Assembly (NCBI GenBank): GCA_964549115.1
Contig: CAZJTX010000001.1
Coordinates: forward strand, 56,494 to 120,493
DNA from: an uncultured Muribaculaceae bacterium
Lineage (GTDB): Bacteria; Bacillota_I; Bacilli_A; RF39; UBA660
DNA: 64,000 bases
Reading direction: 5' to 3'
Shown here: piece after piece, positions 36,327-60,929 of the stretch
How positions within the stretch are numbered: position 1 is the first letter of the stretch
Layout: the number at the start of each line of letters is the position of its first letter
Translations under genes and position numbers: made by a program
The notes under the pieces: model-generated
Database searches by the model: none
Seen by the model: the letters and a program-made list of their open reading frames with translations, nothing else
What the model was told of the DNA's origin: nothing

Positions 36327-37844
36327 TTAACTAACAATTACTTTTAATAATCTATGACCCCAGTTTTCAGCTGCATCTTCAACAGAATATAGTACGTAGT
36401 ATGTTCCTGCTTTCGCTAAGTTTACTGTTCCTGCTTTTGTTACGTCAGCATCTGTTAGATTTGTATCCACATTATCAGTTACTTCAGCTTCTGGTAACAG
36501 ATCTTCTAAGTCTCCTTCTGTACCTAACGCTATTTCAATTTCATCATTTTCTAAATATGAGCCATCTCCAGCTAAGAATTTAATTTCTGGTGCTGTTGTA
36601 TCTGATGCTCCAGGTCCTGCTCCTTGGTTAAGTGCTGGTCCTTCATAGCCTGAATCTCCAGGATATAGTTGTTGTTTTGAGAATCCAAATTTAACTGAAA
36701 TTTTTCTTCCAATTGCTGCAAAGTCATAGTTATCTATGTCTTGTCCTTCTAGGTATATGTATACTCTTACTTTAGTAATACTTGCTGGTTCAAGTCTCAT
36801 GAATTCTGGTCTTAATCTACCTCTCATTAATTTCATTGTATCTGTGAAATATTCAAATTCTTCTACGAACTCGCTATTAGCTTCGTATGTATTAAATGCT
36901 TTACCATCATAAATGTTAACGTTATCACCTGATCCAATTACTTTTTGCGCTACATATGTTGGATAACCAATACCATCTATCACTTCTTCACATTCGCCAG
37001 AATATGAATCTGTTTTAGTAACATCCGCACCTGTTCTTGCCGCACAGTTGGTTGCATAATAACTTATTGCATGAGTCTCATGATTTCTATCATTTGGTTC
37101 CCAAATTTGTGCATCTCTACAAATTCCAGTTACGTTATCATCACCCGTACAAGTAATTCCCGTTACAACTTCTGCATCTAATTCTTCTAATGCTGAAACT
37201 CTTCCGATTTGAGCAAATGCTACACGTACTGAGTTTTCAATTCCTGAACCTGCTACGCCGCCGTCTCCTGCATCTGGTGCCGATTCTTCAGTTACAGTTA
37301 CCGATGAATCAGGAGCTAGATAAATTGCTTCTTCGCCTAAAATATCTAGAGCTTTTAGATATTGATTACCTGAGCTATTTTTAACAAATAAATCAAATAC
37401 AACATATCCATCTGCTTCTTTATCACCTTTATTTTGAACTTCACTAACCATTAGTCTTAGTCCACCCGGTGTTCCTTCCGGTACAGCGGTTAAACTGGCT
37501 TTTTCATATAGAACTAGTCTAGATGAGGTTTGATCAATTTTACCTGCCGTTGACATTGGTATTAAACCACGTCCAGCCCAATTATTAGTATTACCTTCAT
37601 AGACAGTATCGGTGTCGTTAAAGGTTTCCTTACTAATTGCTACTGTTGTGTCAAAATTCTCGCCGTCAAACGATAATAACAAGCCATCAGCTGCTGCTAT
37701 TTCAATATCGAACGATGTTACGTTGACTGTTTGCATTCCTATAAACCATGCAAATGTTGCTACCAATAATACGATTGCACTAAGTGCACTAATACCTATT
37801 AGGTTTCTAACCCTTTTAGAGTGTTGAGGGTTTTCTTTTTTCAT
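36327..37844 (-). CDS. paralog A of the FAWFIGMQ/WLEGQD surface-protein family with C-terminal DUF5011 Ig-like domain
   Basis: 505 aa. Anchor …LLVATFAWFIGMQ. Shared motifs IPMSTAGKID, GYVVFDLFVKN, SVRVAFAQIGRV, GICRDAQIWEPND, KVRVYIYLEGQDIDNYD and SVKFGFSKQ. C-terminal Ig-like block TAPEIKF…GTYYVLYSVEDAAEN. Confidence 0.6.
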   Translation of the reverse strand: MKKENPQHSKRVRNLIGISALSAIVLLVATFAWFIGMQTVNVTSFDIEIAAADGLLLSFDGENFDTTVAISKETFNDTDTVYEGNTNNWAGRGLIPMSTAGKIDQTSSRLVLYEKASLTAVPEGTPGGLRLMVSEVQNKGDKEADGYVVFDLFVKNSSGNQYLKALDILGEEAIYLAPDSSVTVTEESAPDAGDGGVAGSGIENSVRVAFAQIGRVSALEELDAEVVTGITCTGDDNVTGICRDAQIWEPNDRNHETHAISYYATNCAARTGADVTKTDSYSGECEEVIDGIGYPTYVAQKVIGSGDNVNIYDGKAFNTYEANSEFVEEFEYFTDTMKLMRGRLRPEFMRLEPASITKVRVYIYLEGQDIDNYDFAAIGRKISVKFGFSKQQLYPGDSGYEGPALNQGAGPGASDTTAPEIKFLAGDGSYLENDEIEIALGTEGDLEDLLPEAEVTDNVDTNLTDADVTKAGTVNLAKAGTYYVLYSVEDAAENWGHRLLKVIVS

Positions 37845-37897
37845 ACTTTTTTCTCCTTCTTTCCTTTATTTTGAATAGTCTCTCTACTATTATATTA

Positions 37898-37925
37898 ATT
37901 TTATCATATCATTTGATTTTGTCAA
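37898..37925 (-). promoter_or_regulatory. sigma-A-type promoter of paralog A
   Basis: On the minus strand: TTGACA, a 16 nt spacer, then TAAAAT. The same architecture recurs upstream of paralog B. Confidence 0.35.
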
Positions 37926-37938
37926 TATTATTTGACGT

Positions 37939-39576
37939 TTATTCTGTTTTTTGAGTCTTTAATATTTTATTAGTTTCAGTTACAAACCAAATTTGTTCAA
38001 CATCGATTTTACTTTCTTCTATTATTTTTATTCTAAGCAGTAAATCCAGTTTCTCTAAAAGTAAATCAATGTCGCCTTCTTCAAAGTCCTCTTCTGTAAC
38101 ATTTATGTTTTCTAATCTATATTTATTAACTATAGTACTTTTCAAGTTATTATCTTCAAATACTAAAGCTCCTTTTGTAACAATGTTTGTTGTTTCTTTA
38201 GCGTAAGCATCAAAGTTATCGCTAATTTTCATTAAATCAGAATATGTTTCTAGGTCCATTAATTTTTTAATTACATCTTTTTTATAATAAGAATGGCTAT
38301 GATAAAAGTTCATTAATTCCGAAATAGTTAGAGCCTTGTTTAACATTGATAATACATTTATTGTGAAAAACTCATTATCTTCCTTTATATATAGATCATA
38401 TGTTAAATTAGCTAACTTATTAGACTCAATTTTTAATTGTTTTACTTCATAATTAGTCTTATTATCATTTAAGATTGTATCTTTTTTAAATATAGTATTG
38501 TTAATCTTTGCTAATTTACGTTCGTTCTTTTTAATGTCTTTGTTAATCTCTTTAATCTTTTTTAAATGTAAATTAACTCTTTTTTTGTCTCCAATTTGTT
38601 CTAGTTCTTTTATATATTCTTGTTTAAAATTATTTACAATAGGTAAAAAAGTCATATAATTCTTTAACTCAACTACATTTGTTCTTAGTTTTTCTACTGA
38701 AGAATAAAACTTTTCCAATTTTTGTTTATCATCCATATCCAATGCTTCGATGGATAGTGTTGTATATGCTGAAGTTCGGTTTTTACTTTCTTCAAAGAAA
38801 CTATTAACATCAGCTTCTCCGCTTTTAGCTAAATCAATTATGTCCCAAATAGTTTCGTTTTGAGTTAATAACAGTTCTCTTGAAGCTTCTTTTAGTTTAT
38901 CAATACATTCTTGATAAGTTTTAATCTTTTCAGCTTGCATAGACTTTGTTTGTTTATCTTTGATATAAGCATCAAACTTTTTGGCATTATCTTTTACTAA
39001 TTTTCTAAAAGTTAATTCTATGTGTTTTACTATTTCTGGGTTTAACCAGTATATTTGTTCAAACACTTTATTTAATTTAGTGAAATTCTTTTCTTCTTGG
39101 GATCTTTCTTTTAAGAACGCTTTCATGTAATCATGTACATATGAGGTTAACTTAAAGTCCGATGACACTAATTTAATATCAACTTTTTCAAATATTACTA
39201 ATAAGTCTTCTAATATTCGATTAAGTGATTTAAATTCAAAATCAGTATAATTGCTTAACTCATAGAATAAATTATCAAAATTTAATTTTTCGTAATATGT
39301 ATTACTTGGGTTAAGTAACATTTTTAATTCTTCAAGTTTTTTAACCTTTTCAATTAATTCTTCATTTTTACGAGATTCTTTTTTAGATAGTATTTTTTTA
39401 GTTTTAGCTTCTAAATATCTTTTTACTTGATCTTCATATTCTTCGTATTTAGCATGTATTTCATCTATCTTTTTATTTTTATTCTTTTTATTAGTTTTCG
39501 TTCTAACAGGAAGAGATGTTATTAAGGTGGTTTTAGCAGCTATATCTTCTTCTATAAACTCTAAAAAATTACTCAT
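37939..39576 (-). CDS. cytoplasmic coiled-coil protein
   Basis: 545 aa. No TM helix or signal peptide. K/E-rich heptad-like segments. Embedded between surface-protein paralogs. Confidence 0.4.
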   Translation of the reverse strand: MSNFLEFIEEDIAAKTTLITSLPVRTKTNKKNKNKKIDEIHAKYEEYEDQVKRYLEAKTKKILSKKESRKNEELIEKVKKLEELKMLLNPSNTYYEKLNFDNLFYELSNYTDFEFKSLNRILEDLLVIFEKVDIKLVSSDFKLTSYVHDYMKAFLKERSQEEKNFTKLNKVFEQIYWLNPEIVKHIELTFRKLVKDNAKKFDAYIKDKQTKSMQAEKIKTYQECIDKLKEASRELLLTQNETIWDIIDLAKSGEADVNSFFEESKNRTSAYTTLSIEALDMDDKQKLEKFYSSVEKLRTNVVELKNYMTFLPIVNNFKQEYIKELEQIGDKKRVNLHLKKIKEINKDIKKNERKLAKINNTIFKKDTILNDNKTNYEVKQLKIESNKLANLTYDLYIKEDNEFFTINVLSMLNKALTISELMNFYHSHSYYKKDVIKKLMDLETYSDLMKISDNFDAYAKETTNIVTKGALVFEDNNLKSTIVNKYRLENINVTEEDFEEGDIDLLLEKLDLLLRIKIIEESKIDVEQIWFVTETNKILKTQKTE

Positions 39577-39707
39577 GATTCTTCCTCTTCTATTTTAGAA
39601 TCTTCTAATGTTTTAATAAATTCAACAATGTCATTATATAGTTTAATTAAGTCAGTTAAACTTAATACTGACATGTCATAATCAACTTTTTTTACTTCCT
39701 TTTTCAT
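39573..39707 (-). CDS. small ORF (44 aa) translationally coupled to the coiled-coil gene
   Basis: MKKEVKKVDYDMSVLSLTDLIKLYNDIVEFIKTLEDSKIEEEES. RBS GGTGGA lies 5 nt upstream. Its TGA stop overlaps the ATG of the downstream gene (ATGA). It is below the ORF-track length cutoff. Confidence 0.4.
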   Translation of the reverse strand: MKKEVKKVDYDMSVLSLTDLIKLYNDIVEFIKTLEDSKIEEEES

Positions 39708-39801
39708 CTATCCACCTTTTATCCTTAAATTAATTAAGGGCAACCAACTAGATTACCCTTAATAATTTTATATTTCTAACATAATCAATAGTTAGTATTT
39801 A

Positions 39802-41319
39802 TTAACTTACAATAACTGTTCTATAAACTCTAACAGCTCTGTTTCCTGCCCAGTCACTTACATCATAAGCTACGTAATATGTTCCTGCTTTAGATGTATC
39901 TACCGGATTTATAACTTGGATTCTATATGTTATGTCACCGTCAACATCATCTTCTGCTGTTGCGCCCGCATCAATATAGTCATCATTTAAATCAACGTTT
40001 ACTGTTTCTTCGCCTTCTAGTGTTATAACTGGTTTTGTTGTGTCTTCAACTTCTGGACGAGGTCCCTCATAACCGAAGTCGTCTCCAGTCATTCTTTGTT
40101 TTGTAAATCCAAATTGAACTGATATTCTTTTACCGATAAATGATAAATCATAGTTATCAATATCTTGACCTTCTAAGAAAACATATACTCTTACTTTAGT
40201 AATACTATTTGGAGCAAGTGTCATGAAAGCTGGTCTATTAACACTTTGTAAATCTCTATGTGTGTCTGTGAAATATGGATATGCTTTTAATTTATTATTT
40301 GTTATTGCTTCCATGTGTCCGTTATAAGCTTCACCATCATAAACGTTTACATGATCTGATACTGTTATAACATCTTGTACAGCATATGTTGGATAAGCTG
40401 CATCTTCTTCAATTAATCCACATGCGTTTTCCGAATATGAATCTTCATCATATACATCTATATCTGGAGTTTCGTCTACTCTTTCTCTACAGTTTGTTTC
40501 ATAATAATTGATTGCGCTTACAACGTGCTTTGTATCATTTGGTTCCCAAATTTGTGCATCTCTACAAATTCCGGTTATTCCATTATCAACATCAGGTTGT
40601 CCACCGTCTCCCACATTACATGTGATTCCGGTAATTTTATCTTGATCAGTTTCGGTTCCGATAACTCTTCCGATTTGAGCAAATGCTACTCTAATTGCGT
40701 TTTCAATGCCTGTATCTTCTTCTCCAGCTTCTGCTACTTCAACTTTTGAACCTGCACCTGCTTCAACGCCTTCATCTCTGTCTGTAATTAGATAAATTGC
40801 TTCTTCGTCTAAAAGATCTCTATCTTCAATATAAGCTGTTGATCCAGTATTTTTCACAAATAAATCAAACGCCACATAACCGGCTTGTTCCGTTTGGCTT
40901 TGTTCGTGGTTATTTACTCGACTACTAATTAATCTAAATCCACCTGGTCCTGTTGCTGGTACTGGTGTATGACTTGCTTTTTCAAACAATTTTAGTCTTG
41001 AAGCTTCTAAGTCAATTTCACCTACTGACGACATTGGAATTAAACCATGTGTTCCGCCCCAACTATTAGTGTTACCTTCATATGAATCTATATTAAAATT
41101 ATCTTCATTTATAGTAACTGTTGTGTCCCATTTCCTTCCATCTAATGATAGCATCAGGCCATCTACAACTGCTACTTCAATATCGAATGAAGTTACAGTA
41201 ACTGTTTGCATTCCTATAAACCATGCAAATGTTGCCACTAATAAGACAATTGCACTTAGTGCACTTATACCTACTAGATTTCTTACACGATTATCGTGTC
41301 TTTGATTTTTCTTGTTCAT
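39802..41319 (-). CDS. paralog B of the FAWFIGMQ/WLEGQD family with DUF5011 domain
   Basis: 505 aa. The N-terminal 80 aa are about 80% identical to paralog A. Same motif set. C-terminus PVITLEG…GTYYVAYDVSDWAGN. Confidence 0.6.
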   Translation of the reverse strand: MNKKNQRHDNRVRNLVGISALSAIVLLVATFAWFIGMQTVTVTSFDIEVAVVDGLMLSLDGRKWDTTVTINEDNFNIDSYEGNTNSWGGTHGLIPMSSVGEIDLEASRLKLFEKASHTPVPATGPGGFRLISSRVNNHEQSQTEQAGYVAFDLFVKNTGSTAYIEDRDLLDEEAIYLITDRDEGVEAGAGSKVEVAEAGEEDTGIENAIRVAFAQIGRVIGTETDQDKITGITCNVGDGGQPDVDNGITGICRDAQIWEPNDTKHVVSAINYYETNCRERVDETPDIDVYDEDSYSENACGLIEEDAAYPTYAVQDVITVSDHVNVYDGEAYNGHMEAITNNKLKAYPYFTDTHRDLQSVNRPAFMTLAPNSITKVRVYVFLEGQDIDNYDLSFIGKRISVQFGFTKQRMTGDDFGYEGPRPEVEDTTKPVITLEGEETVNVDLNDDYIDAGATAEDDVDGDITYRIQVINPVDTSKAGTYYVAYDVSDWAGNRAVRVYRTVIVS

Positions 41320-41374
41320 CTTTCTCCCTCTCTTTTGTGAACTTTTGTAAAGTCCTCTTTTCTACTCTAATTAA

Positions 41375-41402
41375 AGTTTATCACATTACCATTTTTTGTC
41401 AA
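41375..41402 (-). promoter_or_regulatory. sigma-A-type promoter of paralog B
   Basis: On the minus strand: TTGACA, a 16 nt spacer, then TAAACT. It is embedded in the same TTTGTCAATAaTAaTTGAC element found upstream of paralog A. Confidence 0.35.
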
Positions 41403-41430
41403 TAATAATTGACACAAATTAAAGTCTTTT

Positions 41431-42450
41431 TTAAAAATCTATATACCCCGCTAAGTCTTTTAATAAATCTATAGCAAGGAATATTGGTGCCCCCTCTGAG
41501 TTTGTTTCCAAACTATCTATATCTTGACCTTCTAACCAAACATAAATTCTCATTTTAGTAATTCCATTTGGTATTTGAAATATTGGATCAATGAATTGAG
41601 ATTCCATTATTGTTTCTTGAAATTGGAAATGTTCAGTATCTAAAGGTATTCCCGATCCTTCATGACCATTGGCATACTCTAGTCTTCTACCTTCTTTTAT
41701 AATAGCGTATGTGGGTGATATTTCTCCATCTACTAATGTAACACCATAATCTGTATAAGCTCTTTCTATTGAAAGCGGTGAATGTTTTATTTTATTTGGT
41801 TCATATATAACTGCCGCACAATCATTATTACATTTCAAGTTTTGAATATTTCTTATTTCATCATTTGATGAAGTGCTTCCTATTTTTAAAAATCCGAACC
41901 TTATAGAGTTAATAATACCATCCATCTCTATTCTTGATTCTTCATCCACGTCATCACCAAAATCTATATATGTTCCCTCATCTATATATAAGTTGTCGCT
42001 TTTAGGTGAACCACTCACATTTTTTAAAAATATATCAAATGCTAAATATGATTTATATAAATTAGATGAGTCCTCTGGCATATGAGCAGTATTTAAGAAA
42101 CGGTAAAGTTTCCTATCTTTATCTCTTGCTTTAACTAATGTTCCTTCATATATTTCAAACTTATCTTGGTTGGGATGCTTTATCCCTATTGTAGATATTG
42201 GCCACAGTCCTTTAGCAGCCCATTGATTAGTGTTCGTTGGGTATCTTGTTTTTAAATTATCTATAATTGATTTTGAAGTAATTTCGACCGAATCTGAAAA
42301 ATCGATTCCGTCTAAAGAAATAAATAAACCACTATTACTAGATACGTTCATTTCAAAGAATTTAATTTTAACATTCAAAGAAACAGAAAACCATGCATAA
42401 GTAACAAAGATTAGAAGCACTGTTGTTAAAAACAGTAGTGCTAAAACCAT
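41431..42450 (-). CDS. paralog C (short, no DUF5011) of the same family
   Basis: 339 aa. Contains FVTYAWFSVS, GLWPISTIGI, SYLAFDIFLKN, INSIRFGFLKIG and KMRIYVWLEGQDIDSLE. The ATG at 42450 has no SD. A non-canonical ATA start at 42504, 5 nt after AGGAG, would add a basic N-terminus as in the other paralogs. Confidence 0.5.
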   Translation of the reverse strand: MVLALLFLTTVLLIFVTYAWFSVSLNVKIKFFEMNVSSNSGLFISLDGIDFSDSVEITSKSIIDNLKTRYPTNTNQWAAKGLWPISTIGIKHPNQDKFEIYEGTLVKARDKDRKLYRFLNTAHMPEDSSNLYKSYLAFDIFLKNVSGSPKSDNLYIDEGTYIDFGDDVDEESRIEMDGIINSIRFGFLKIGSTSSNDEIRNIQNLKCNNDCAAVIYEPNKIKHSPLSIERAYTDYGVTLVDGEISPTYAIIKEGRRLEYANGHEGSGIPLDTEHFQFQETIMESQFIDPIFQIPNGITKMRIYVWLEGQDIDSLETNSEGAPIFLAIDLLKDLAGYIDF

Positions 42451-42512
42451 TGGCTTTTCTTTAAATTTATTTTTAAGATCTTTTAATTTTACTTCTTTTT
42501 TTATGATAACTC

Positions 42513-43955
42513 CTAATCTTCTACTATGACTGTTCTAATAACTTCTTCTGCCCAGTTACCTGCCCAGTCTCTTACGTTGTATCTAACTACATATGTACCC
42601 TCTACATTTGTATTTACATGGTTTTGAACAACAATATGTTCAGTTATATCTCCTTCTAAATTATCATCTGCCGTTGCACCTTCATCTGTATATGTCGAAC
42701 CAGTTGCTATACGTACAATCGGGTCTCCTATTAATGTAATTACAGGAGGAGTAACGTCTCTTGCTGGTGCTATATCTGGACCATCATAATCGAAGTCTTC
42801 CTCGGTTAAACGATCTTTGGTAAATCCAAAATGAACTGATATCCTTTTACCTATTGCAGCATAATCATAATTGTCAATATCTTGACCCTCTATATAAATA
42901 TATACCCTTACTTTAGTAATACTATTTGGTGCAAGTGTCATAAATGTTGGTCTTCTAACACCAGGCATATCTCTGTTTGTATCTGTAAAATATGGATATT
43001 TCATAACTTTAGGACTTGGAGCATAACTGTTATATTCTTGACCATCGTATATATCAACATTATCTGATGACATTAATTCTTGTCTTATAGCATATGTCGG
43101 ATAATATGTTTCATCTTCTAATTGGTGACACTTATCTGATGAATATGCTGTTGGCATATGTATTTGGGTTCCTACCCTTCTTCTACATGTTGCATCATAA
43201 AATTTAATTGCGTTTTCAACATGATATATATCATTTGGTTCCCAAATTTGACCTATTCTACAAATTCCTGTAATGCCGTCCTTAATTGAAGGAACTCCAA
43301 CATCATTCGCGTTACATGTTATTGATGTAATTAACTCTTGATCTGTTACAGCTGCTGATACTCTTCCGATTTGAGCAAAAGCTACTCTTACTGAATTTTC
43401 TATACCAGTATTTGCTATACCAGTCTCGGCAACATTAACTTCTGATTCAATAGATAAGTATATTGCTTCTTCATTTAATACATCGTCTATTTCAAAATAT
43501 TTTGGTCCCGAGAAATTTTTAATAAATAAGTCAAACGCTACATAACCGTCCGCTTCGGCTTCACCAGTATTGTGAACTCTACTTGCCATAATTCTATGTC
43601 CACCCGAAGTAGCTGTAAAACTAGATTTTTCAAAAAATACTAGCCTTGATGAATTAACATCAACTTCACCAATAGTAGACATTGGTATAAGTCCTCTTCC
43701 ACCCCACCTATTCGTATGTCCTGGATAAGACACTTCATCTACTGTTTCTTTAGTTATGCTCACAGTTGTGTTCCATTTTTTACCATCAAGTGACAATAAC
43801 AAACTATCCGTTGCAGCTATTTCAATATCAAATGATGTCACACTAACTATTTGCATTCCTATAAACCAAGCAAATGTTGTTACAAGCAATAATATAGCTG
43901 TTATTGTTGTAACTGTTATTAATTTCTTTAATCTTTTCGTATCTTTTTTAGTCAT
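42513..43955 (-). CDS. paralog D with DUF5011 domain
   Basis: 480 aa. Contains TTFAWFIGMQ, GYVAFDLFIKN, KVRVYIYIEGQDIDNYD and PVITLIG…GTYVVRYNVRDWAGN. Confidence 0.6.
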   Translation of the reverse strand: MTKKDTKRLKKLITVTTITAILLLVTTFAWFIGMQIVSVTSFDIEIAATDSLLLSLDGKKWNTTVSITKETVDEVSYPGHTNRWGGRGLIPMSTIGEVDVNSSRLVFFEKSSFTATSGGHRIMASRVHNTGEAEADGYVAFDLFIKNFSGPKYFEIDDVLNEEAIYLSIESEVNVAETGIANTGIENSVRVAFAQIGRVSAAVTDQELITSITCNANDVGVPSIKDGITGICRIGQIWEPNDIYHVENAIKFYDATCRRRVGTQIHMPTAYSSDKCHQLEDETYYPTYAIRQELMSSDNVDIYDGQEYNSYAPSPKVMKYPYFTDTNRDMPGVRRPTFMTLAPNSITKVRVYIYIEGQDIDNYDYAAIGKRISVHFGFTKDRLTEEDFDYDGPDIAPARDVTPPVITLIGDPIVRIATGSTYTDEGATADDNLEGDITEHIVVQNHVNTNVEGTYVVRYNVRDWAGNWAEEVIRTVIVED

Positions 43956-43965
43956 TTGCTATCTC

Positions 43966-45405
43966 CTATTCAACTATTACAGTTCTAGTAACTTCATCTG
44001 CCCAGTTACCTGCCCAGTCTCTTACGTTATATCTAACTATATATGTTCCTGTTTCCGCAGTGTTGACAGGATTATTTACAACTATATAAGGAGTTATATC
44101 TCCGTCTATATTATCACTTGCTGTTGCACCTAAGTCGTCATATGTTGATCCTTGATTAATAGTTATTTCATCTAAACCATTTAATAATATAATTGGTTTA
44201 ATTGTATCTCTTAGAGGTTCTAAATTCGGTCCTTCGTATCCAATATCGTCTTCAGTAAATCTTTGTTTTGTAAATCCGAATTTAACTGATAATTTTCTTC
44301 CTATTGAAGCATAATCATAATTATCTACATCTTGACCTTCTAAATATACATATACTCTTACTTTAGTAATACTATTTGGAGCCAAATACATAATAGGTAG
44401 TCTTTCAACACCTTCTAATTCTTTATCTGTATCTGTAAAATAAGGAACGCTAAATAACTTAGTACTACCCTCATATGTATTATATGCTGGTCCATCGTAT
44501 ATATTTACATAATCACTTGATGCAATAGGTTCACTAACTACATATGTTGGGTACGCTACTCCATCAACTATAGGATTACAAGTTCCACCATAAGATTCTG
44601 GTAATCTTGAATTTCCTCCAGTTCTTTTTAAACAATGAGTATCATACCAATCTATAGCTCCCGCCACGTGCTTAGTATCATTTGGTTCCCAAATTGATGC
44701 AGCTCTACATATTCCTGTTACTCCATCAACTATACTAGGTTTACCTTCTCCATCTGGATTACATGATATAGAAGCAATTTTTTCTTGATCTAATTCTGTA
44801 CCTATAACTCTTCCGATTTGAGCAAAAGCTACACGTACCGAATTTTCTAGTCCTGTATCTTCAACTCCACCATCTATAGCAACTTCTACAGATGAATCAA
44901 CAGATAAATAAATTCCTTCTTCATCTAATAAATTATATTCTGGAGTATAAGCACTTCCTGTCATATTTCTAACAAACAAGTCAAATACTACATAACCATC
45001 TGCTTCTTTGTCTCCTGTATTTTCTACTCTACTTGCCATTAAACTATGGCCACCAGGTATAGCAGTTATTCCTGCCTTTTCAAAAAGCATTAATCTAGAT
45101 GTATTCACATCAATTTGTCCAATTGTTGACATCGGTTCTAATCCGCCGCCTGACCACCAATTAGTATGATTTGGATATGATACATTTTCTAAATTTTCTC
45201 GGTTAATACTTACCGTAGTATCCCAGCTCACTCCATCTAGTGATAATAATAAGTTTTCAGCTGCTGCAATATCAATATCAAATGATGATACCATTACTGA
45301 TTGCATTCCAATAAACCAACCAAATGCAGTAAAGATTAATACTACCGCACTTAAAGCCATTAGAATCAACTGACGTCTTATTTTAATTGTACTTTCTTTC
45401 TTCAT
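43966..45405 (-). CDS. paralog E with DUF5011 domain
   Basis: 479 aa. Contains TAFGWFIGMQ, GYVVFDLFVRN, KVRVYVYLEGQDVDNYD and PIILLNG…GTYIVRYNVRDWAGN. Confidence 0.6.
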   Translation of the reverse strand: MKKESTIKIRRQLILMALSAVVLIFTAFGWFIGMQSVMVSSFDIDIAAAENLLLSLDGVSWDTTVSINRENLENVSYPNHTNWWSGGGLEPMSTIGQIDVNTSRLMLFEKAGITAIPGGHSLMASRVENTGDKEADGYVVFDLFVRNMTGSAYTPEYNLLDEEGIYLSVDSSVEVAIDGGVEDTGLENSVRVAFAQIGRVIGTELDQEKIASISCNPDGEGKPSIVDGVTGICRAASIWEPNDTKHVAGAIDWYDTHCLKRTGGNSRLPESYGGTCNPIVDGVAYPTYVVSEPIASSDYVNIYDGPAYNTYEGSTKLFSVPYFTDTDKELEGVERLPIMYLAPNSITKVRVYVYLEGQDVDNYDYASIGRKLSVKFGFTKQRFTEDDIGYEGPNLEPLRDTIKPIILLNGLDEITINQGSTYDDLGATASDNIDGDITPYIVVNNPVNTAETGTYIVRYNVRDWAGNWADEVTRTVIVE

Positions 45406-53189: not shown

Positions 53190-54578
53190 TTATACTATCT
53201 CAGAACACACTTCTATAGTTCCGTACCAATTAAATTGAGTGAACAATAATTTAATTAAAATTGGCAAGAAAAACAATATTATAGTATAAATAAATCTTTT
53301 TAATGCTGTCGAGGAAGCTTTTTTGATTGCGTCATTATCTTGGGCTATAAGTGCCTTAAAGACATCCATAGAACTTAAAAGAAATAATCCGCCTATTCCG
53401 GCTATTCTAATAATATTTAATGTTAACTGTATCCAGTAAGCTGGATGACTTTTATCATCAGGTTCTCCAAATATAGCACCGCAAGATGCATCTTTTACTT
53501 CTAAATTTCCCAAATCAAAATACTCATCTAAAGTAACCAATAATACTTCATCCATATTTCCTTGGTTATCCAATAAGCCTTGAACTAATTCTGCTCCTGA
53601 TTCATCTCCGGCATCTGCCAATTCTTTAGCCTTCTTTTCAAGAACATCTAGAATCATTTCTTTAACTGATTTATCAGAAAGATAATCTTTACCCCTATAG
53701 ACTTCTCGTATCCAGTTTTTCATAAATTCAGGTAAAATTAACAAGTTTGTAGCGTAATCTTTTTTTATTCTTTCTTCTTGAACATTTATCAGTTCTTTAA
53801 ATATCGCCTCATATATTTCATCCGCAATTTGTTCTGAAGATTTTTTATCTTTTAAATCAGGATATAATTCTATGTATTTATCAAGTATTTTATCCATTGA
53901 TGGAGAAATAGAATTTTCAACAGATCTTTTAAAAGTTGTTTCTTCATTCACTTGCAACGGATGACCATCATGTTCAGGATGTATTCTCATTGATCCTGTT
54001 CCAATCATAGGAACACTCCAATACACAAACGAATCTTTACACACATTTGGAGCATCTGCAAAGCACTTTAAATTAGCATTATAATTGGTTTTTGATCTTG
54101 GTTCGGTATATGCCCAATCATCAAAATACACATTATTTGCACAAGAAAATCTTGTTATTCCATCTACCGTAGTAACAGTTGTAAGTTCTCCCGGTGTAGG
54201 ATCTGGGTCCAAATACATTTTTTTATAATAGTTATATGCTCCTCTAGGAAATGTACATTTACTATTAGTGTCAGAGTGACAACCTTCATCATCAACTCTT
54301 TTTTCAAATATAGCTCTAAAACTTGACGGACCTTGTGTATAATTCGAATTGTTCGGAGAATAAAGAGCAAAATAACCTATTTTTGTGTCATAAGGATCAA
54401 CCATATATAATATTTGCATAATATCTTCCGATGCACCAGAACTTCTATAAGTACATAATGGAATACACAATTTGTTTTGCACACAAGTTTCAAGATTTAT
54501 AGGCGTTACTGCATTTACTGTTTTGGGCAATAAAATTAGTAACAACAATATCGTTAAAACTCCAAATTTATTTTTCAT
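53190..54578 (-). CDS. secreted Cys-rich protein with conserved C-terminal two-helix membrane module (PAYWIQ…)
   Basis: 462 aa. Signal peptide. The C-terminal ~90 aa are homologous to the C-termini of the two NlpC/P60 paralogs. Confidence 0.45.
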   Translation of the reverse strand: MKNKFGVLTILLLLILLPKTVNAVTPINLETCVQNKLCIPLCTYRSSGASEDIMQILYMVDPYDTKIGYFALYSPNNSNYTQGPSSFRAIFEKRVDDEGCHSDTNSKCTFPRGAYNYYKKMYLDPDPTPGELTTVTTVDGITRFSCANNVYFDDWAYTEPRSKTNYNANLKCFADAPNVCKDSFVYWSVPMIGTGSMRIHPEHDGHPLQVNEETTFKRSVENSISPSMDKILDKYIELYPDLKDKKSSEQIADEIYEAIFKELINVQEERIKKDYATNLLILPEFMKNWIREVYRGKDYLSDKSVKEMILDVLEKKAKELADAGDESGAELVQGLLDNQGNMDEVLLVTLDEYFDLGNLEVKDASCGAIFGEPDDKSHPAYWIQLTLNIIRIAGIGGLFLLSSMDVFKALIAQDNDAIKKASSTALKRFIYTIILFFLPILIKLLFTQFNWYGTIEVCSEIV

Positions 54579-54615: not shown

Positions 54616-55485
54616 TCATTTTTTATTTACAATTAAACTTTTTATAAGTTTTTTATTATTAAAGATTACAATTTGTTCTTCAGCTAATCTAAAATTAAAT
54701 ATACTATCCTCTAATATTTCACCATCATAATTACATGGCATTATTTCTTTAGACCGTATAGTAACATTAGTGATTTGTTGTTTTTTTACATATTTTAAAG
54801 ATTCGTGTGTTCCCTTTACTAACTTGGTTATAGCATTAATTATCTGCGCCTTATTAATTCCTTCTATTGCATAAAAATCTAATACACTATTATCGACTTT
54901 CGCATTAAGTGCAATTTTAAAACCATTCCCATAATATCTACCATTGCAAACAGTAAGGATTGTATACTTTTTATAATTATCATTGTTTATAGAATATAGT
55001 TTGTTTTTATATTTGAAATAAGTATAAAGTATACTTTTTATATAAATGTTCGATGTATCTCCGGTTGTTTTTTTCATTTTGTTAGCATTTTTAGCTATTT
55101 CAGCATCTATACCCACAGAGGCTACATTAATAAAATATTTATCATTAACAATTCCCAGATCTGATTTAAAAACCTGTGGATGGTTTTTTATTGTTTTATA
55201 GAAATCATTTCCACTACCACCTGGTATTACCCCAAGCATAGCTGTACCTCCAACCATTCCATTTACTATTTCGTTTAATGTTCCGTCGCCACCAACTGAG
55301 TATATAACCTTAGCTCTGTTTTTATATCGTCTTGCAAGTTTTACTGAATCGCCTGCTTTTTTAGTGTAGGTTAATATCCAGTCCTTTTCTTTAATCATTT
55401 CTAGTTTATCTGCAATTAATTGGGCATTACCCCCACCCGCTAAAGGGTTAATAATAAAAACAATCACTTTATTATTTCTCCACAT
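54616..55485 (-). CDS. diacylglycerol/lipid kinase catalytic-domain protein (DAGK_cat, YegS/DgkB-like)
   Basis: 289 aa. Contains IINPLAGGG and GGDGTLNEIVNG motifs. Confidence 0.7.
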   Translation of the reverse strand: MWRNNKVIVFIINPLAGGGNAQLIADKLEMIKEKDWILTYTKKAGDSVKLARRYKNRAKVIYSVGGDGTLNEIVNGMVGGTAMLGVIPGGSGNDFYKTIKNHPQVFKSDLGIVNDKYFINVASVGIDAEIAKNANKMKKTTGDTSNIYIKSILYTYFKYKNKLYSINNDNYKKYTILTVCNGRYYGNGFKIALNAKVDNSVLDFYAIEGINKAQIINAITKLVKGTHESLKYVKKQQITNVTIRSKEIMPCNYDGEILEDSIFNFRLAEEQIVIFNNKKLIKSLIVNKK

Positions 55486-56654
55486 TCATTATTGTAATCA
55501 TTTCCATAAACTTTCATATACCCTAATAATAAATTAAGTAAAAGTGGTAAGAAAAACAATATAATAGTATACATAAATCTTTTTAAAGTTGTTGTAATTG
55601 CTTTCTTAGTTGCTTCATCATCTTGGGCAGATAATGCTTTTACTAAATCTATTGTACTAAGTAATAACAATGCTGCGATAGCTGCAATCCTTACAATATT
55701 TAAAGACATTTGAATCCAATAAGCAGGTTCAGCTTTATTATTTATATTTCCTAACATACCGTTACAAGCAAAATTTTCATCTATTGCAAGTGGAGTTAGG
55801 TGTAAATTTGCTTTATCATCTGTTTTTATTAAACTAATTATTCCATCATCTTCATCAGTAGGAGCACCAGTTATAAAAGAACCAGAATTTATTACTTTAA
55901 AAGAAAGTTTGCCACCCTTTCCTACAATGTCTCCACATTTCCAATCATTCCAACGAATATAATTAGTTTGTCTTTTAAGATTAGAACCATAAAAAGCATA
56001 ATTATATCCATCTATTGCTTGTAATTCCTTAGAAAAGTTTTGATATTTCATTTCATAAGCTAATTCTTGATTATATGTATAAGGTCTTGCACAACCTGGC
56101 ATTCTACCAGGCGACTTATATTTAGTTAGGTCATCTACTTGCACCGCACCTGTTCCTGATGTGGTTTGGTGAATAAAATTATCCCCACCTAAATATAAAC
56201 CAACGTGAGGCGCCATATCCAAACCCCATTTTTTATAATAATCTAAATACAATAAATCCCCTGGTTGTATATAGTTACAATCTATCATTAAGTTAGCATT
56301 TTTCATTGCTCTTACTGAACGTACAACACCCGTTCCTATTGCAGTATTAGTATATTTTGTATCAGCCCAATATAATCCAACTTGAGTTAAAGCATAATGA
56401 GTAAAACCTGTACAATCAAAACCAGTAAGACTGTGTCCTCCTAGTACATATTTTACGCCAATTTTAGAAACCCCAGCACACGCAATATGCTGACCTAATG
56501 TCTTAGTACCGGTGCCACCTCTAAAGCCGGGTTGACCACCTGGTATTGAAAATCGTTCTCCTGTTTCATCTACTACTAATTCAGCATTTACCACATTTAT
56601 AGCAAAGAACATTAATAACACAAATAATAACGATTTAATATATTTTTTATTCAT
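55464..56654 (-). CDS. NlpC/P60-family peptidoglycan hydrolase with C-terminal PAYWIQ two-TM module (copy 1)
   Basis: 396 aa. Signal peptide. Catalytic FDCTGFTHYA (Cys) and PHVGLYLGGDNFIHQT (His). The C-terminal anchor is homologous to the 53190 and 56826 genes. Confidence 0.7.
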   Translation of the reverse strand: MNKKYIKSLLFVLLMFFAINVVNAELVVDETGERFSIPGGQPGFRGGTGTKTLGQHIACAGVSKIGVKYVLGGHSLTGFDCTGFTHYALTQVGLYWADTKYTNTAIGTGVVRSVRAMKNANLMIDCNYIQPGDLLYLDYYKKWGLDMAPHVGLYLGGDNFIHQTTSGTGAVQVDDLTKYKSPGRMPGCARPYTYNQELAYEMKYQNFSKELQAIDGYNYAFYGSNLKRQTNYIRWNDWKCGDIVGKGGKLSFKVINSGSFITGAPTDEDDGIISLIKTDDKANLHLTPLAIDENFACNGMLGNINNKAEPAYWIQMSLNIVRIAAIAALLLLSTIDLVKALSAQDDEATKKAITTTLKRFMYTIILFFLPLLLNLLLGYMKVYGNDYNNECGEIIK

Positions 56655-56688
56655 TTCTTTATCCTTATTTAATTTATTATACCATTTT

Positions 56689-56772
56689 TTATTTTAATTT
56701 AATATCTATACCGTCTAAACTAAAACTTTTAACATCAGTTATGTAAACATCTATAATATTATCAACTTCTTT
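56689..56772 (-). pseudogene. duplicated 3' fragment of miaB (tandem-duplication scar)
   Basis: The reverse translation reads …KEVDNIIDVYITDVKSFSLDGIDIKLK*, which matches the true miaB C-terminus (NIIDVYITDAKSFSLDGIDIKLK*) at 58045-58125 with two differences. It is preceded by an in-frame TAA. Confidence 0.65.
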
Positions 56773-56825
56773 TTATACCGTTTTATCCACCATCTTTTTA
56801 ATATGTCCTAATAATAAAACAATTA

Positions 56826-58016
56826 CTATCTTATTTCTCCACATTCGGGATTAAACTCATTACCATAAACTTTCATATAACCAAATAGCAAATTAAGTAA
56901 TATAGGTAAGAAAAACAATATTATAGTATACATAAATCTTTTTAACGATCTAGTTATTGTTTTTTTGGTTACTGTATCATCTTGAGAAGATAACATTTTA
57001 ATTAAATCTATTGTACTAAGTAATAATAATGCTGAGACAGCCGCAATTCTTATTACATTTAAAGCCATTTGAATCCAATAAGCAGGATCCGATTTATTTC
57101 CTACATTTCCTAAAAGACCATCGCACGGAAAAGTTTTATCCATTTCAAGAGGTTTTAAATGCAAATTTGTTTCATCATCAATTTTGATTAATTTTATTAC
57201 TTCCGAATCAGAAGATGATCCCGTACTGGTTTGAATAGAATTTATTACTTCAAATGGAATTTTACCCCCTCTTCCAACAATTTCTTCACATTTCCAATCA
57301 TTCCAACGAATATAATTAGTTTGCTTTCTTAGACCAGAAACAGAAAACGAAAAATTATAGCCATCTATTGCTTGTGATTCTTTAGAAAAGTTTTGATATT
57401 TCATTTCATAAGCTAACTCTTGATTATAAGTATAAGGTCTAGCACACCCCACAATTTGTCCTGGCAAACTATAATGTTTAGATAATATATCAAATTGAAC
57501 AGCATTAGCATATGTAGATTCGGTCTGATGGATAAAATTATCCCCACCCAAAAATATACCAACGTGAGGAGGATTATCTGTAGCATACATTCTATAATGA
57601 TCTAAATATAATAAATCTCCTGGTTGGACATAATTACAGTCTTCCAACAACAAGTTTGCTTTTTTCATCGCTGCATACGATTGCACAACGCCATTTCCTA
57701 ATGAAGCCCCAGGATTGTTTGGAGATTCCCAGAATAAACCGACCTGAGTTAAAGCGTAATGAGTAAAACCCGTACAATCAAAAGCATCAAGTCTATGACC
57801 TCCCATTTCATAAGGTGTTCCAATTTTAGGAATACCCGCACATGCTATATGTTTGCCTAAAGTTTTGGTTCCTGTTCCACCTTTAAAACCAGATGCTGTA
57901 CCCGGAATAGAAAATCTTTCTCCAGTTTCATCCAACACTAATTCTGCGTTTACCATATTCATGGAAAACAACATTAATAATATAACCAATAATAATTTAA
58001 AATGTTTTATCTTCAT
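56826..58016 (-). CDS. NlpC/P60-family peptidoglycan hydrolase with C-terminal PAYWIQ two-TM module (copy 2)
   Basis: 396 aa. Roughly 65-70% identical to copy 1. Same catalytic residues and the same C-terminal module. Confidence 0.7.
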   Translation of the reverse strand: MKIKHFKLLLVILLMLFSMNMVNAELVLDETGERFSIPGTASGFKGGTGTKTLGKHIACAGIPKIGTPYEMGGHRLDAFDCTGFTHYALTQVGLFWESPNNPGASLGNGVVQSYAAMKKANLLLEDCNYVQPGDLLYLDHYRMYATDNPPHVGIFLGGDNFIHQTESTYANAVQFDILSKHYSLPGQIVGCARPYTYNQELAYEMKYQNFSKESQAIDGYNFSFSVSGLRKQTNYIRWNDWKCEEIVGRGGKIPFEVINSIQTSTGSSSDSEVIKLIKIDDETNLHLKPLEMDKTFPCDGLLGNVGNKSDPAYWIQMALNVIRIAAVSALLLLSTIDLIKMLSSQDDTVTKKTITRSLKRFMYTIILFFLPILLNLLFGYMKVYGNEFNPECGEIR

Positions 58017-58044
58017 ATCTTTATGTATTTTATTATAACATTTT

Positions 58045-59448
58045 TTATTTTAATTTAATATCTATACCATCTAAGCTAAAGCTTTTAGCATCAGTAATAT
58101 AAACATCAATGATATTATTAACATTATTTTTAGTAGTTTTAACATTTACTAATTTCATTGTATCGGTGTATCCATAAAATAAGGTATTATCTTTTTCGCT
58201 TTTACCCAATATTAAAACTGGTACAGTTTTATTTAATAACTTTTTATTATTTTCTAAAGAATATTTATTAACCAAATCATTAAGTTTGTATAATCTTTCT
58301 TTTTTAATTTCTAATGATATATTATCTTCCATTTTAGCCGCTACTGTATATTCTCTTTTTGAATATATAAAAGTATATGCCCCATCAAACTTACAATAAT
58401 TCACTAAATCTAATGTTTGTTTAAAATCCTCATCACTTTCATTAGGAAACCCAACTATAATGTCGGTGGTAATTGAAACATTAGGTATTTTATTTTTTAT
58501 TTTATCAAATAAAACTTTATACGATTCATTAGTATATTTTCTATTCATTTTTTTAAGTATTTCGTTACTACCTGATTGTACTGGTAAATGTATATAAGGC
58601 ATAATGTTTTTATATTTAGATATTACTTCGATTAACTCATCAGTAAAGTTCCAAGGATTTGATGTTACAAATCTAACTCTTTCTATATTAGTTTTAGCAA
58701 CATCTTCCAACAAATCAGAAAATCTATAATCCCCATCTTTGTACGAATTAACATTTTGTCCTAAAAGCGTTACTTCTTTATAGCCGTTTTCTTTTAAACA
58801 TTTTACTTCGTTTATTATTTCTTCTTTTTTTCTACTTCTTTCTTTTCCCCTTGTAAATGGAACTACACAATAAGTACAAAAATTATCACATCCATAAGTT
58901 ATATTAACCCACGCTGTAACATTAGAATCTCTTTTATACTGTATATTTTCAAATACTTCATTACTGTTTGAATATACCTGAATATTTAATTTCTTTTGTT
59001 TATTTATAATTAATTCAGGCAGTTCATGAATATTATGAGTTCCTATAATAATATCTATATATTTATGTTTTTTATTTAACTCATCTATTTCTTTTTCCAG
59101 CTGCATTAAACATCCGGCTAAACAAATTATAATATCAGAATTAATCTTTTCCTTTATATGCTTAGCTATTGATAAAAATCCAATGATTTTTTCTTTAGCA
59201 TTTTCTCTTATTGCACACGAATTAAGAACAACTATGTCCGCATCTTTCATATCTGTTGTGTTTTCATAACCTAGTTGTTCTAAATAATATACAATCTGCT
59301 CAGAATCATGAACATTCATCTGACATCCATAAGTTCTAATATAATACTTTTTATTTTTAACTATATTTTTTATATCATTATTTAACGTTATATAATTAGC
59401 ATCTAAATTATCTCTTTTTAGTGCATCTTTATAGTTTGGTTTACTCAT
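58045..59448 (-). CDS. miaB: radical-SAM tRNA methylthiotransferase (MiaB-like)
   Basis: 467 aa. N-terminal MTTase Cys triad (YIRTYGCQMNVHDSE…NSCAIRE…GCLMQ), radical-SAM CTYC and a C-terminal TRAM domain. MtaB or RimO cannot be fully excluded. Confidence 0.7.
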   Translation of the reverse strand: MSKPNYKDALKRDNLDANYITLNNDIKNIVKNKKYYIRTYGCQMNVHDSEQIVYYLEQLGYENTTDMKDADIVVLNSCAIRENAKEKIIGFLSIAKHIKEKINSDIIICLAGCLMQLEKEIDELNKKHKYIDIIIGTHNIHELPELIINKQKKLNIQVYSNSNEVFENIQYKRDSNVTAWVNITYGCDNFCTYCVVPFTRGKERSRKKEEIINEVKCLKENGYKEVTLLGQNVNSYKDGDYRFSDLLEDVAKTNIERVRFVTSNPWNFTDELIEVISKYKNIMPYIHLPVQSGSNEILKKMNRKYTNESYKVLFDKIKNKIPNVSITTDIIVGFPNESDEDFKQTLDLVNYCKFDGAYTFIYSKREYTVAAKMEDNISLEIKKERLYKLNDLVNKYSLENNKKLLNKTVPVLILGKSEKDNTLFYGYTDTMKLVNVKTTKNNVNNIIDVYITDAKSFSLDGIDIKLK

Positions 59449-59639: not shown

Positions 59640-60929
59640 TCATTTTTTGATAGGAACTAACTTCTCTTTACCCCTCATATAAGGTCTTAATACTTCTGGA
59701 ATTATAACTGTATTATCTTCTTGTATGTTATTTTCTAAAAACGCTATTAACGCTCTTGATGTTGCTAACACAGTATTATTTAAAGTATGTAAGTATCTCA
59801 TTCCATCTTTTGTTCTATTTCTTATTCCTAATCTTCTAGCTTGAGCTTCGCCTAGATTAGAACATGATCCAACTTCAAAGTATTTTTGTTGTCTAGGACT
59901 CCATGCTTCTACATCACATGATTTAACTTTTAAGTCTGCTAAATCCCCTGAACAACATTCTAATGTTCTTACTGGTACATTTAGATTTCTAAATACTTCA
60001 ACAGTATACATCCACATTTTGTCATACCATTCTTTTGAATCTTTAGGATCACATATTACAATCATTTCTTGTTTTTCAAATTGATGAACTCTAAATATTC
60101 CACGTTCTTCAATACCGTGTGCTCCTACTTCTTTTCTAAAACATGGTGAGTATGAAGTCATAGTTATTGGTAATTCTTCATCTTTAATTATTTGATCTTT
60201 AAATTTACCAATCATTGAGTGTTCACTTGTACCTATTAAGTATAAGTCCTCTCCCTCAACTTTATACATCATTGCATCCATTTCTGTAAATGACATAACT
60301 CCACTTACCACTTCTTCTCTAATTAAGAATGGTGGAATACAATATATAAAACCTTGATCCATCATATAATCTCTAGCATAATTAATCATAGCTGTAGATA
60401 AAAGAGCAATATCTCCCATTAAGTAATAAAAACCATGTCCACTAGTTCTTCCAGCTGCATCCTTATCCCAACCATTGAATAATTCCATTATTTCTGCATG
60501 ATATGGTACTTCATATTCTGGAACTACTGGATCTCCCCATCTTTCTCTTTCAACATTTTCTGTATCATCTTTTCCTAGTGGTACATCATCAGCAATAATG
60601 TTTGGAATCACCATCATAATGTCAGTAATTTCTTTAGATAACTTATTTTCTTTTTCTTCTAAAGAATCTATTTCCTCATTTATTACCCTTACTTCTTCTT
60701 TAATTTTTTCGGCTTCTTCTTTTTTGCCTTCTCTCATCAAAGCACCAATGTTATCACTAATCTCATTTCTTTTACTTCTTAACTCATCGGCCTTCTTTTT
60801 AACATCTCTAAAATCTTCATCAAGTTTATATACCTTATCAACTAAAGGTAATTTTTCATCTTGAAACTTTTTCTTAATGTTTTCTTTTACTAAATCTTTA
60901 TTAGTTCTAATTAAATTAATATCTATCAT
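59640..60929 (-). CDS. serS: serine--tRNA ligase
   Basis: 429 aa. N-terminal coiled-coil arm and class II motifs (…FRKEVGAHG…, GSCSNLGEAQARR…). Confidence 0.95.
   Translation of the reverse strand: MIDINLIRTNKDLVKENIKKKFQDEKLPLVDKVYKLDEDFRDVKKKADELRSKRNEISDNIGALMREGKKEEAEKIKEEVRVINEEIDSLEEKENKLSKEITDIMMVIPNIIADDVPLGKDDTENVERERWGDPVVPEYEVPYHAEIMELFNGWDKDAAGRTSGHGFYYLMGDIALLSTAMINYARDYMMDQGFIYCIPPFLIREEVVSGVMSFTEMDAMMYKVEGEDLYLIGTSEHSMIGKFKDQIIKDEELPITMTSYSPCFRKEVGAHGIEERGIFRVHQFEKQEMIVICDPKDSKEWYDKMWMYTVEVFRNLNVPVRTLECCSGDLADLKVKSCDVEAWSPRQQKYFEVGSCSNLGEAQARRLGIRNRTKDGMRYLHTLNNTVLATSRALIAFLENNIQEDNTVIIPEVLRPYMRGKEKLVPIKK

Follow-up and report, generated by a model that had tools for sequence, protein, structure and literature searches.

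Paired gene-end scars point to a tandem duplication of NlpC/P60 hydrolase genes at a recombining locus of an uncultured gut bacterium

How do two paralogous surface-hydrolase genes come to stand side by side among housekeeping genes, and is the locus that holds them still gaining copies? We addressed this question for a 64,000-nucleotide stretch (hereafter the window) of contig CAZJTX010000001.1 from the assembly GCA_964549115.1 of an uncultured bacterium, in which two NlpC/P60 hydrolase genes, hydB (56826-58016) and hydA (55464-56654; all positions in window coordinates unless another contig is named), lie on the minus strand between miaB and a lipid-kinase gene. An earlier, sequence-only reading took the pair for a recent tandem duplication at an actively expanding locus. 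As we discuss below, the hydrolase genes and the short gene fragments between them are best explained by a genuine 1.36-kb head-to-tail duplication, which probably arose in the lineage of the window species and was followed by exchange of alleles between strains.

The repeat takes in both hydrolase genes and more. Positions 55449-56775 and 56809-58132 formed a single blastn alignment (76.2% identity over 1338 nt, E = 0), and the copies are adjacent and in direct orientation, with a repeat period of 1357-1360 nt. The two encoded proteins, each of 396 residues, are 68% identical, and the genes are thus clearly paralogous, as had been proposed.

Two scars, one from each flanking gene, lie between the hydrolase genes. 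First, the minus strand of 56689-56772 translates to KEVDNIIDVYITDVKSFSLDGIDIKLK followed by a stop codon, exactly as the sequence-only reading had claimed, and reproduces the C-terminus of the intact miaB gene (58045-59448), with 72 of 84 nt, 23 of 27 residues, and the stop codon matching the live end at 58045-58128. This similarity extends to about 56783 (78/95 identical to 58045-58139), and scar 1 (56689-56783) is a dead copy of the miaB 3' end comprising 27 codons and the stop, its source being the last ~30-38 codons of the live gene. When the live MiaB tail was used as the lone query against the whole window, it matched 56689-56775 (87.5% over 88 nt) with an E value of 6.8e-26, and the nucleotide identity between the stretches upstream of hydA and hydB, on which the earlier reading had staked its case, is thus highly significant; the second-best window match reached only E 0.001, and 100 shuffled 84-mers gave at most 50/84 identities anywhere in the window. 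Second, the hydrolase leader was copied together with the miaB end, again as proposed, and the part past the stop codon that is common to both copies matches at 24 of 28 positions plus a 6-nt indel. Third, the first 13 lipid-kinase codons recur as scar 2 (56809-56846), which is 89.7% identical to the live kinase start (55449-55487) across 39 nt (E 2.9e-9) and is frameshifted by the loss of 1 nt. Scar 2 overlaps the last 7 codons of hydB, mirroring the 22-nt overlap of the live kinase start with the end of hydA. The duplicated unit named earlier, consisting of miaB tail, leader, and hydrolase gene, was therefore borne out as far as it went but was incomplete, as the unit also spans the 13 kinase codons.

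The MiaB tail and the kinase start stand back to back between the hydrolase copies, forming a novel joint bordered by truncated genes. About 25 nt of this joint (56784-56808) are assignable to neither parent, with local alignments to the sequence upstream in miaB or downstream in the kinase gene that were shuffle-like or marginal (p 0.04 to 0.6); these nucleotides may be what is left of MiaB sequence after decay, with an ATTA microhomology at the join. We considered and rejected translation of scar 1, which has an in-frame TAA immediately upstream and no ATG, GTG, or TTG start. In the history that we favor, recombination would have joined a point ~37 nt into the kinase gene to a point ~95-120 nt before the miaB stop codon, giving a repeated unit that runs from the miaB tail through the hydrolase promoter and leader and the hydrolase gene to the kinase start. 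Both partial copies ended up at the internal joint, and miaB and the kinase gene therefore stayed whole. Since the unit includes the likely promoter and the ribosome-binding site, each copy would have carried its own expression signals. Diverged allelic blocks are now exchanged at the locus by homologous recombination, as comparison of strains shows directly.

Is there a relative with one copy? Among 5.8 billion proteins searched, only six relatives of hydA were found. One of the contigs with a related locus (L001, 2.3 kb, from a related species) has miaB, a single hydrolase gene, and the kinase gene in this order with no scar; its miaB is 84% identical in amino acid sequence over 169 residues and its kinase 82% identical. 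The single hydrolase is 53-54% identical to hydA and 52% identical to hydB, whereas hydA and hydB are closer to one another (68%), and both the leader and the catalytic domain of hydA are nearer to the L001 hydrolase than are those of hydB. This comparison, which the sequence-only reading had called for, supports a putative single-copy ancestor. Four further contigs (L002, L003, L090, and L091) come from the window's own species and from three other assemblies. All four carry two copies with the same joint and the same scars, so that, with the window, each of the five contigs from this species has a copy number of two, and the 19-21 kb contigs among the four span the whole locus. A scan of GTDB with hydA alone found no relative, and a scan of JGI metagenomes with the hydrolase alignment found only an unrelated NlpC/P60 protein at 26% identity. 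None of the GTDB genomes that are nearest by MiaB (uncultured gut Bacilli, 59-69% identical) has a hydrolase or kinase gene beside miaB, and they are therefore of no help in dating the event.

Comparison of the strain contigs revealed what changes at this locus now. Between L091 and the window there was no difference over ~2.3 kb of serS-miaB; all 8 differences in miaB are synonymous and fall within its last 106 nt (window 58045-58150; L091 2507-2613). This clustering places a recombination breakpoint almost exactly at the start of the duplicated segment, where the scar may have served as a homology arm or the position may be coincidence. In hydB, the same two sequences differ at 95 positions (7.9% of nucleotides, 9.5% of amino acids), with 52 of these in codons 1-100, where the synonymous divergence (dS) is 0.51. 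The end of hydB, the joint, the scar, and the hydA leader then show zero differences, followed by 2.7% in hydA and 3.2% in the kinase gene. L002 has the reverse pattern, with 1 difference in 1081 nt of hydB and 24 in hydA. In L003, four differences fall within 28 nt of the segment of hydB that encodes its membrane module (56967-56994; codons 341-350). Beyond the kinase gene, a third gene (53190-54578, 462 residues) has a counterpart in L091 (6077-7432, 451 residues) whose head is only 32% identical, with a C-terminal module that is 81% identical in nucleotide sequence, which looks like cassette-style replacement of the head at a fixed locus. The locus is thus a mosaic of exchanged blocks in which very diverged alleles circulate, and its present change is allele replacement by recombination, not gain of copies. 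L003 and L091 both derive from ERZ4239849, and both hydB alleles, or two haplotypes, therefore coexist in one sample.

The gene copies are old by their silent sites. Between hydA and hydB, dS by the NG86 method is 0.78 overall and reaches about 1.1-1.2 in codons 36-128 and 246-300, and the ratio of non-synonymous to synonymous divergence (dN/dS) is ~0.26, compared with 0.06-0.09 for miaB and the kinase gene. At four-fold degenerate sites, 43 of 91 are identical, against a random expectation of 0.36; the first 180 codons are saturated (19/48), and 24 of 43 sites are identical in the rest. Against the L001 hydrolase, hydA and hydB clearly pair in codons 181-260, as they do at silent sites of the membrane module.

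The scar appears younger than the genes. Scar 1 and the leader together are 86% identical between copies (96/112). In the window, scar and live miaB differ at 12 of 84 positions, of which 8 are third positions and 7 are synonymous. The live miaB tail is itself polymorphic, with 7 of 84 positions differing between the window and L091, all synonymous, and L091 agreeing with the scar at five of them. Across strains, scar and live gene differ at 8-12 of 84 positions, and fixed differences between all scars and all live miaB alleles number only 4 of 84 (codons 4, 7, 14, and 20). Because of this polymorphism among strains, most of the apparent decay of the scar in the window is synonymous change in live miaB and not change in the scar. 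The changes in the scar's own lineage come to ~7/84, and five of the seven are non-synonymous, as expected for dead sequence.

The leaders bear on whether each copy could be expressed on its own. In the hydB leader (58017-58044), the miaB stop codon is immediately followed by an extended -10 box (TGTTATAAT, 58032-58040), and the hydA leader (56655-56688) has the corresponding box, TGGTATAAT at 56676-56684, as well as the ribosome-binding site AAGGA at 56662-56666; the promoter function of these boxes is putative. The motif TGnTATAAT is kept after the miaB stop codon in hydB, hydA, and L001, with only n varying, and AAGGA is common to hydA and L001. Five of the 11 TGnTATAAT sites in the window, including those of hydA and hydB, end 5-27 nt before a start codon on the same strand, and a sixth is intergenic, ~300 nt upstream. 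A scan found no terminator-like site between miaB, hydB, and hydA, so co-transcription is possible. The hydA leader and the last ten scar codons (56655-56720) show no difference in any of the four strain contigs, whereas 56721-56812 has 11 differences in L002, near the synonymous rate, six of them at 56789-56812 in the joint and at the edge of scar 2. This distribution fits constraint on the promoter-proximal part and neutral change in the distal part. A riboswitch upstream of the hydrolases was rejected on leader length, which is only 28-34 nt, no Rfam search having been made. As a separate observation, the best promoter-like match of the 5-kb region lies on the plus strand inside the miaB scar (56729-56757; TTAACA-17-TATAAT, 11/12); it points into the 3' end of hydB and is missing from the live miaB tail.

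Among three histories that share recombination, we favor in-place duplication followed by imports as the simplest start. Several results sit poorly with a duplication of this kind or blunt the evidence for it. First, plain duplication followed by decay predicts, from the least diverged gene blocks (dS 0.57), a scar divergence of ~29% and a proportion of non-synonymous differences (pN) of ~0.24; the observed values are 14% and 0.075. Because the genes have diverged much more at silent sites than the scar has overall, extra events have to be assumed, be it import of an allele, gene conversion, or capture of a foreign allele. Second, L001 is the only outgroup and a contig of 2.3 kb, and loss of a copy in its lineage could also have left a single hydrolase gene there. 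Its silent sites are saturated with respect to the window (four-fold identity 0.26-0.41, random 0.36), which makes polarization weak, and for this reason we dropped the polarizing of scar changes with L001. Third, the exact placing of the joint was given up, as alignments of 56776-56812 to either parent were not clearly above those of shuffles. Finally, the ribosome-binding site of hydB (AAAGAT) is weaker and the hydB leader 6 nt shorter, and the promoters are consensus matches in a window whose 11 TGnTATAAT sites compare with 12.6 in shuffles; a general scan for promoters and terminators, which is uninformative in DNA of 28% G+C, found no terminators and fewer promoter-like sites than shuffled sequence contains.

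Capture of an allele could also have produced the tandem pair, although we consider it unlikely. Here, a segment from a diverged strain or sister lineage, running from miaB tail through a hydrolase allele to the kinase start, would have been added in tandem beside the resident copy, either through a homologous crossover paired with an illegitimate one or by way of a circular intermediate, and the paralogues would be two old alleles of a single locus standing next to each other. Such a history gives the best fit to the proportions of synonymous differences (pS), which are equal, at 0.48, for the scar read as codons against live miaB and for hydA against hydB; with a pN of 0.075, which amounts to protein conservation of the housekeeping kind, the scar looks as if it had spent most of that time evolving in a working miaB. 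That live miaB tails of two strains differ as much as scar and live gene do (7/84 versus 8-12/84), and that highly diverged hydrolase alleles circulate, as in hydB codons 1-100 beside an otherwise identical miaB, are also in line with capture. However, tandem insertion of foreign DNA is rarer than in-place duplication, no donor lineage is known, and the silent divergence between the two genes is non-uniform (0.23-0.77 per 40 codons, p 0.017). Moreover, the mostly non-synonymous changes in the scar's lineage could also have come from a resident copy that decayed neutrally as imports replaced the live miaB tail.

A third history, which we regard as improbable, would make the duplication ancient (dS ~1) and have concerted evolution refresh the scars, the leader, codons ~190-240, and the membrane module by conversion, while the catalytic core was left to diverge. 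It would account for the mosaic of silent-site identity, which is 0.47 in codons 36-128 and 0.76 elsewhere (max-chi-square permutation p 0.017) and 0.86 in scar and leader, and for a catalytic domain that is near-equidistant among hydA, hydB, and the L001 hydrolase (amino acid identities over codons 41-140 of 0.60-0.68, 0.55-0.57, and 0.44-0.60). Such conversion could start at the stretches of 17-30 nt in which the copies are identical. By contrast, no conversion event was caught: we sought hydA-hydB conversion in the strain differences (the L003 cluster and the L091 hydB allele) and found no directional match to the paralogue, as L091 hydB matches hydA where window hydB does not at 31 sites, the reverse holds at 46 sites, and only two of the four clustered changes in L003 match hydA. 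In addition, the signal-peptide region beside the scar is only ~75% identical and would be a poor substrate for conversion, the best-kept gene block has a pS of 0.23-0.31, higher than the scar's own-lineage change, and a loss of one copy in the L001 lineage is required.

The sequence-only reading, in which a recent in-place duplication marks a locus that is gaining copies, is very improbable as a whole. The scar does speak for recency, with stop codon and leader kept, few fixed differences, and a single copy in L001, but this recency holds only in a relative sense, in that the event, or the last homogenization of the scar, would post-date the split from the L001 lineage. The genes do not support it (68% protein and 76% nucleotide identity, a dS of 0.78, and near-saturated N-terminal four-fold sites), and the scar does so weakly. 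Nor is active expansion in evidence, as the same two copies with the same joint recur in all five contigs with no variation in copy number, no third hydrolase copy lies within the window, and the relatives in the protein search were so few. An assembly artefact, in which two strain alleles such as those that coexist in one sample were stitched in tandem, is ruled out for practical purposes by the recurrence in three other assemblies, spanning contigs included, of the same two scars and of a joint with sequence found in neither parent gene.

What do the duplicated genes encode? Both proteins consist of a signal peptide, an NlpC/P60 domain (PF00877; 58.5 bits for hydA and 47.3 bits for hydB, cut-off 23), a family-specific middle region, and a C-terminal two-helix membrane module. 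hydA matched NlpC/P60 proteins in the PDB down to E 6.7e-8 (structures 8er5, 6bim, 2k1g, and 8i2f). Cys81 (in FDCTGF), His150 (in PHVG), and His162 (in FIH) are invariant in hydA, hydB, and the proteins P0001-P0003 and align with the same motifs in 8er5 and 6bim. Because the signal peptide, the Cys-His-His residues, and the C-terminal hairpin are kept in both copies, hydA and hydB are probably active membrane-anchored peptidoglycan peptidases.

The C-terminal module comprises two hydrophobic helices around a charged loop, bracketed by two conserved cysteines. An AlphaFold2 model of hydA placed helices at 310-342 and 347-384 in an otherwise poor prediction (5-sequence alignment; mean predicted local distance difference test score (pLDDT) 36), which was unusable for a fold search. 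The third gene carries the same module (tblastn, E 4e-31) behind an unrelated cysteine-rich head, and the 462-residue protein had no Pfam match. A profile search with the module, at an E limit of 0.001, gave at least 4,345 cluster representatives with lengths of 127 to 545 residues, and no Pfam or NCBIfam model was assigned to this family above threshold. Weak matches recurred to PF18895 (a type IV secretion system (T4SS) pilin family, T4SS_pilin), to Mbov_0395, Mbov_0396, and MMCAP2_0566 from mycoplasma integrative and conjugative elements (ICEs), and also to generic two-helix families such as DUF1980. Among 51 family members, PF18895 matched 6 and NF045889 matched 25, in both cases weakly; the relative P0005 scored 14.9 bits against PF18895 (cut-off 26.6), and the modules of hydA, hydB, and the third gene gave no PF18895 match. 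No match of the module to PF18895, PF04956 (TrbC-VirB2), or NF045849 exceeded the curated threshold, and the module is at most a candidate member of the pilin families.

Gene neighborhoods link the small relatives of the module with type IV secretion. In four distinct gene contexts (L004, L085/L086, L087, and L088), VirB6-like, TcpE-like, and TraC-like genes come immediately after a gene for a small or mid-sized module protein; L085/L086 and L087 also have a VirB4-like ATPase downstream, and L087 additionally has a lysozyme + CHAP hydrolase and a VirD4-like coupling protein. The conserved order in these uncultured gut bacteria is module protein, VirB6-like, TcpE-like, TraC-like, and, where the contig reaches, VirB4-like, and every module member that carries a name in its source is called 'hypothetical protein'. 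The neighbors of hydA and hydB are housekeeping genes, with no VirB4, VirB6, or VirD4 gene in the 64-kb window, and the module in hydA and hydB may therefore be just a membrane anchor. The architecture of hydrolase plus module was found in only three 90%-identity clusters among the 5.8 billion proteins, and it is this fusion that is rare. A doubtful but more far-reaching idea is that hydB, hydA, and the third gene form an array of proteins that each carry cargo on a pilin hairpin, a Gram-positive counterpart of the VirB2-like arrays of Patescibacteria, with exchangeable heads of which two are NlpC/P60 domains; the tandem would then consist of captured old alleles, with conserved flanks, scars, and hairpin acting as homology arms when strains swap heads.

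The order of genes around the duplication, all on the minus strand, is serS (59640-60929), miaB, hydB, hydA, the lipid-kinase gene, the 462-residue gene, and lspA. The gene at 58045-59448 encodes a true MiaB, an intact tRNA methylthiotransferase with the Pfam domains UPF0004, Radical_SAM, and TRAM that scores 502.3 bits against the TIGR01574 equivalog model (cut-off 355.3); the MtaB and RimO models score below their own cut-offs on it. The YegS/DagK-type lipid-kinase gene from which scar 2 derives (54616-55485) is also intact, with matches to DAGK_cat and YegS_C in Pfam and to NCBIfam lipid-kinase models, the latter below their cut-offs.

Elsewhere in the window, 36327-45405 (minus strand) holds a run of paralogous genes for proteins of 479-545 residues, four of which end in a Bact_surface_Ig-like domain (PF16403), a second and larger expansion of surface proteins. 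A 518-residue protein (19904-21460) has a C-terminal sortase domain, from which it follows that the organism has a cell wall. A protein of 675 residues (28407-30434) has an N-terminus that matches the archaeal/SipW-type signal peptidase I model TIGR02228 above its cut-off, and the adjoining 513-residue protein (26873-28414) has a weak McrB-like match. Finally, a 550-residue protein (5458-7110, minus strand) strongly matches the ALK/LTK glycine-rich domain (PF12810; E 6e-34), which is named after animal receptor kinases.

The duplication itself is a clean and ordinary textbook case, and it warns against reading the age of genes from a well-preserved scar beside them, as recombination here distorts the comparison of their ages. 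The locus more broadly presents surface proteins that are hypervariable and subject to recombination, from an uncultured lineage of low-G+C gut Bacilli, and a large, uncharacterized family of two-helix modules, here fused to a peptidoglycan peptidase. If this module were a true counterpart of VirB2, it would bear on the long-held view that Gram-positive conjugation proceeds without pilin homologues.

Bacterial tandem duplications with partial copies of flanking genes at the join arise by unequal or illegitimate recombination and are usually unstable, with near-identical copies. The hydA-hydB locus resembles them in its direct repeat, its joint with truncated border genes, its intact outer genes, and its single-copy relative, but differs in that the copies are only 76% identical in nucleotide sequence, are fixed in the species, and have diverged more at silent sites than have the scars. 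With C40 endopeptidases such as LytE and CwlO of B. subtilis, MepS/Spr of E. coli, and RipA and RipC of mycobacteria, hydA and hydB share the PF00877 domain, the Cys-His-His residues, and the N-terminal signal peptide; unlike them, they lack a LysM, SH3b, or coiled-coil wall-binding part and have a middle region of their own and the C-terminal hairpin. Gram-positive conjugation systems also use wall hydrolases, including CwlT of ICEBs1, Orf14 of Tn916, TcpG of pCW3, and PrgK of pCF10, in which the anchor is an N-terminal helix or a lipid. The likeness here is a membrane-tied hydrolase of the NlpC/P60 or CHAP type and a module family whose small members open Gram-positive T4SS operons; the difference is that hydA and hydB lie among suf, serS, miaB, lspA, and rluD and have the C-terminal hairpin as anchor.

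A further comparison is with VirB2-like proteins. A preprint reports variable tandem arrays of VirB2-like (PF18895) proteins in Patescibacteria and remarks that Gram-positive systems are believed to lack VirB2 homologues (10.1101/2025.01.22.634366). The module proteins resemble the PF18895 family and the pilin-like Mbov_0395 (NF045849) in having a signal peptide and a two-helix hairpin with a charged loop, and small members directly precede VirB6-, TcpE/VirB3-, and VirB4-like genes. Several module genes also cluster as the genes of such arrays do, in tandem or with one unrelated gene between them, and their extracellular parts are highly variable. However, no hidden Markov model match reaches its curated cut-off (the best single value is 4.4e-5, for PF18895, and the window proteins score <= 14.9 bits), and the window proteins carry heads of 300-360 residues, two of them enzymatic, on a hairpin whose link to a secretion machine is at most putative.

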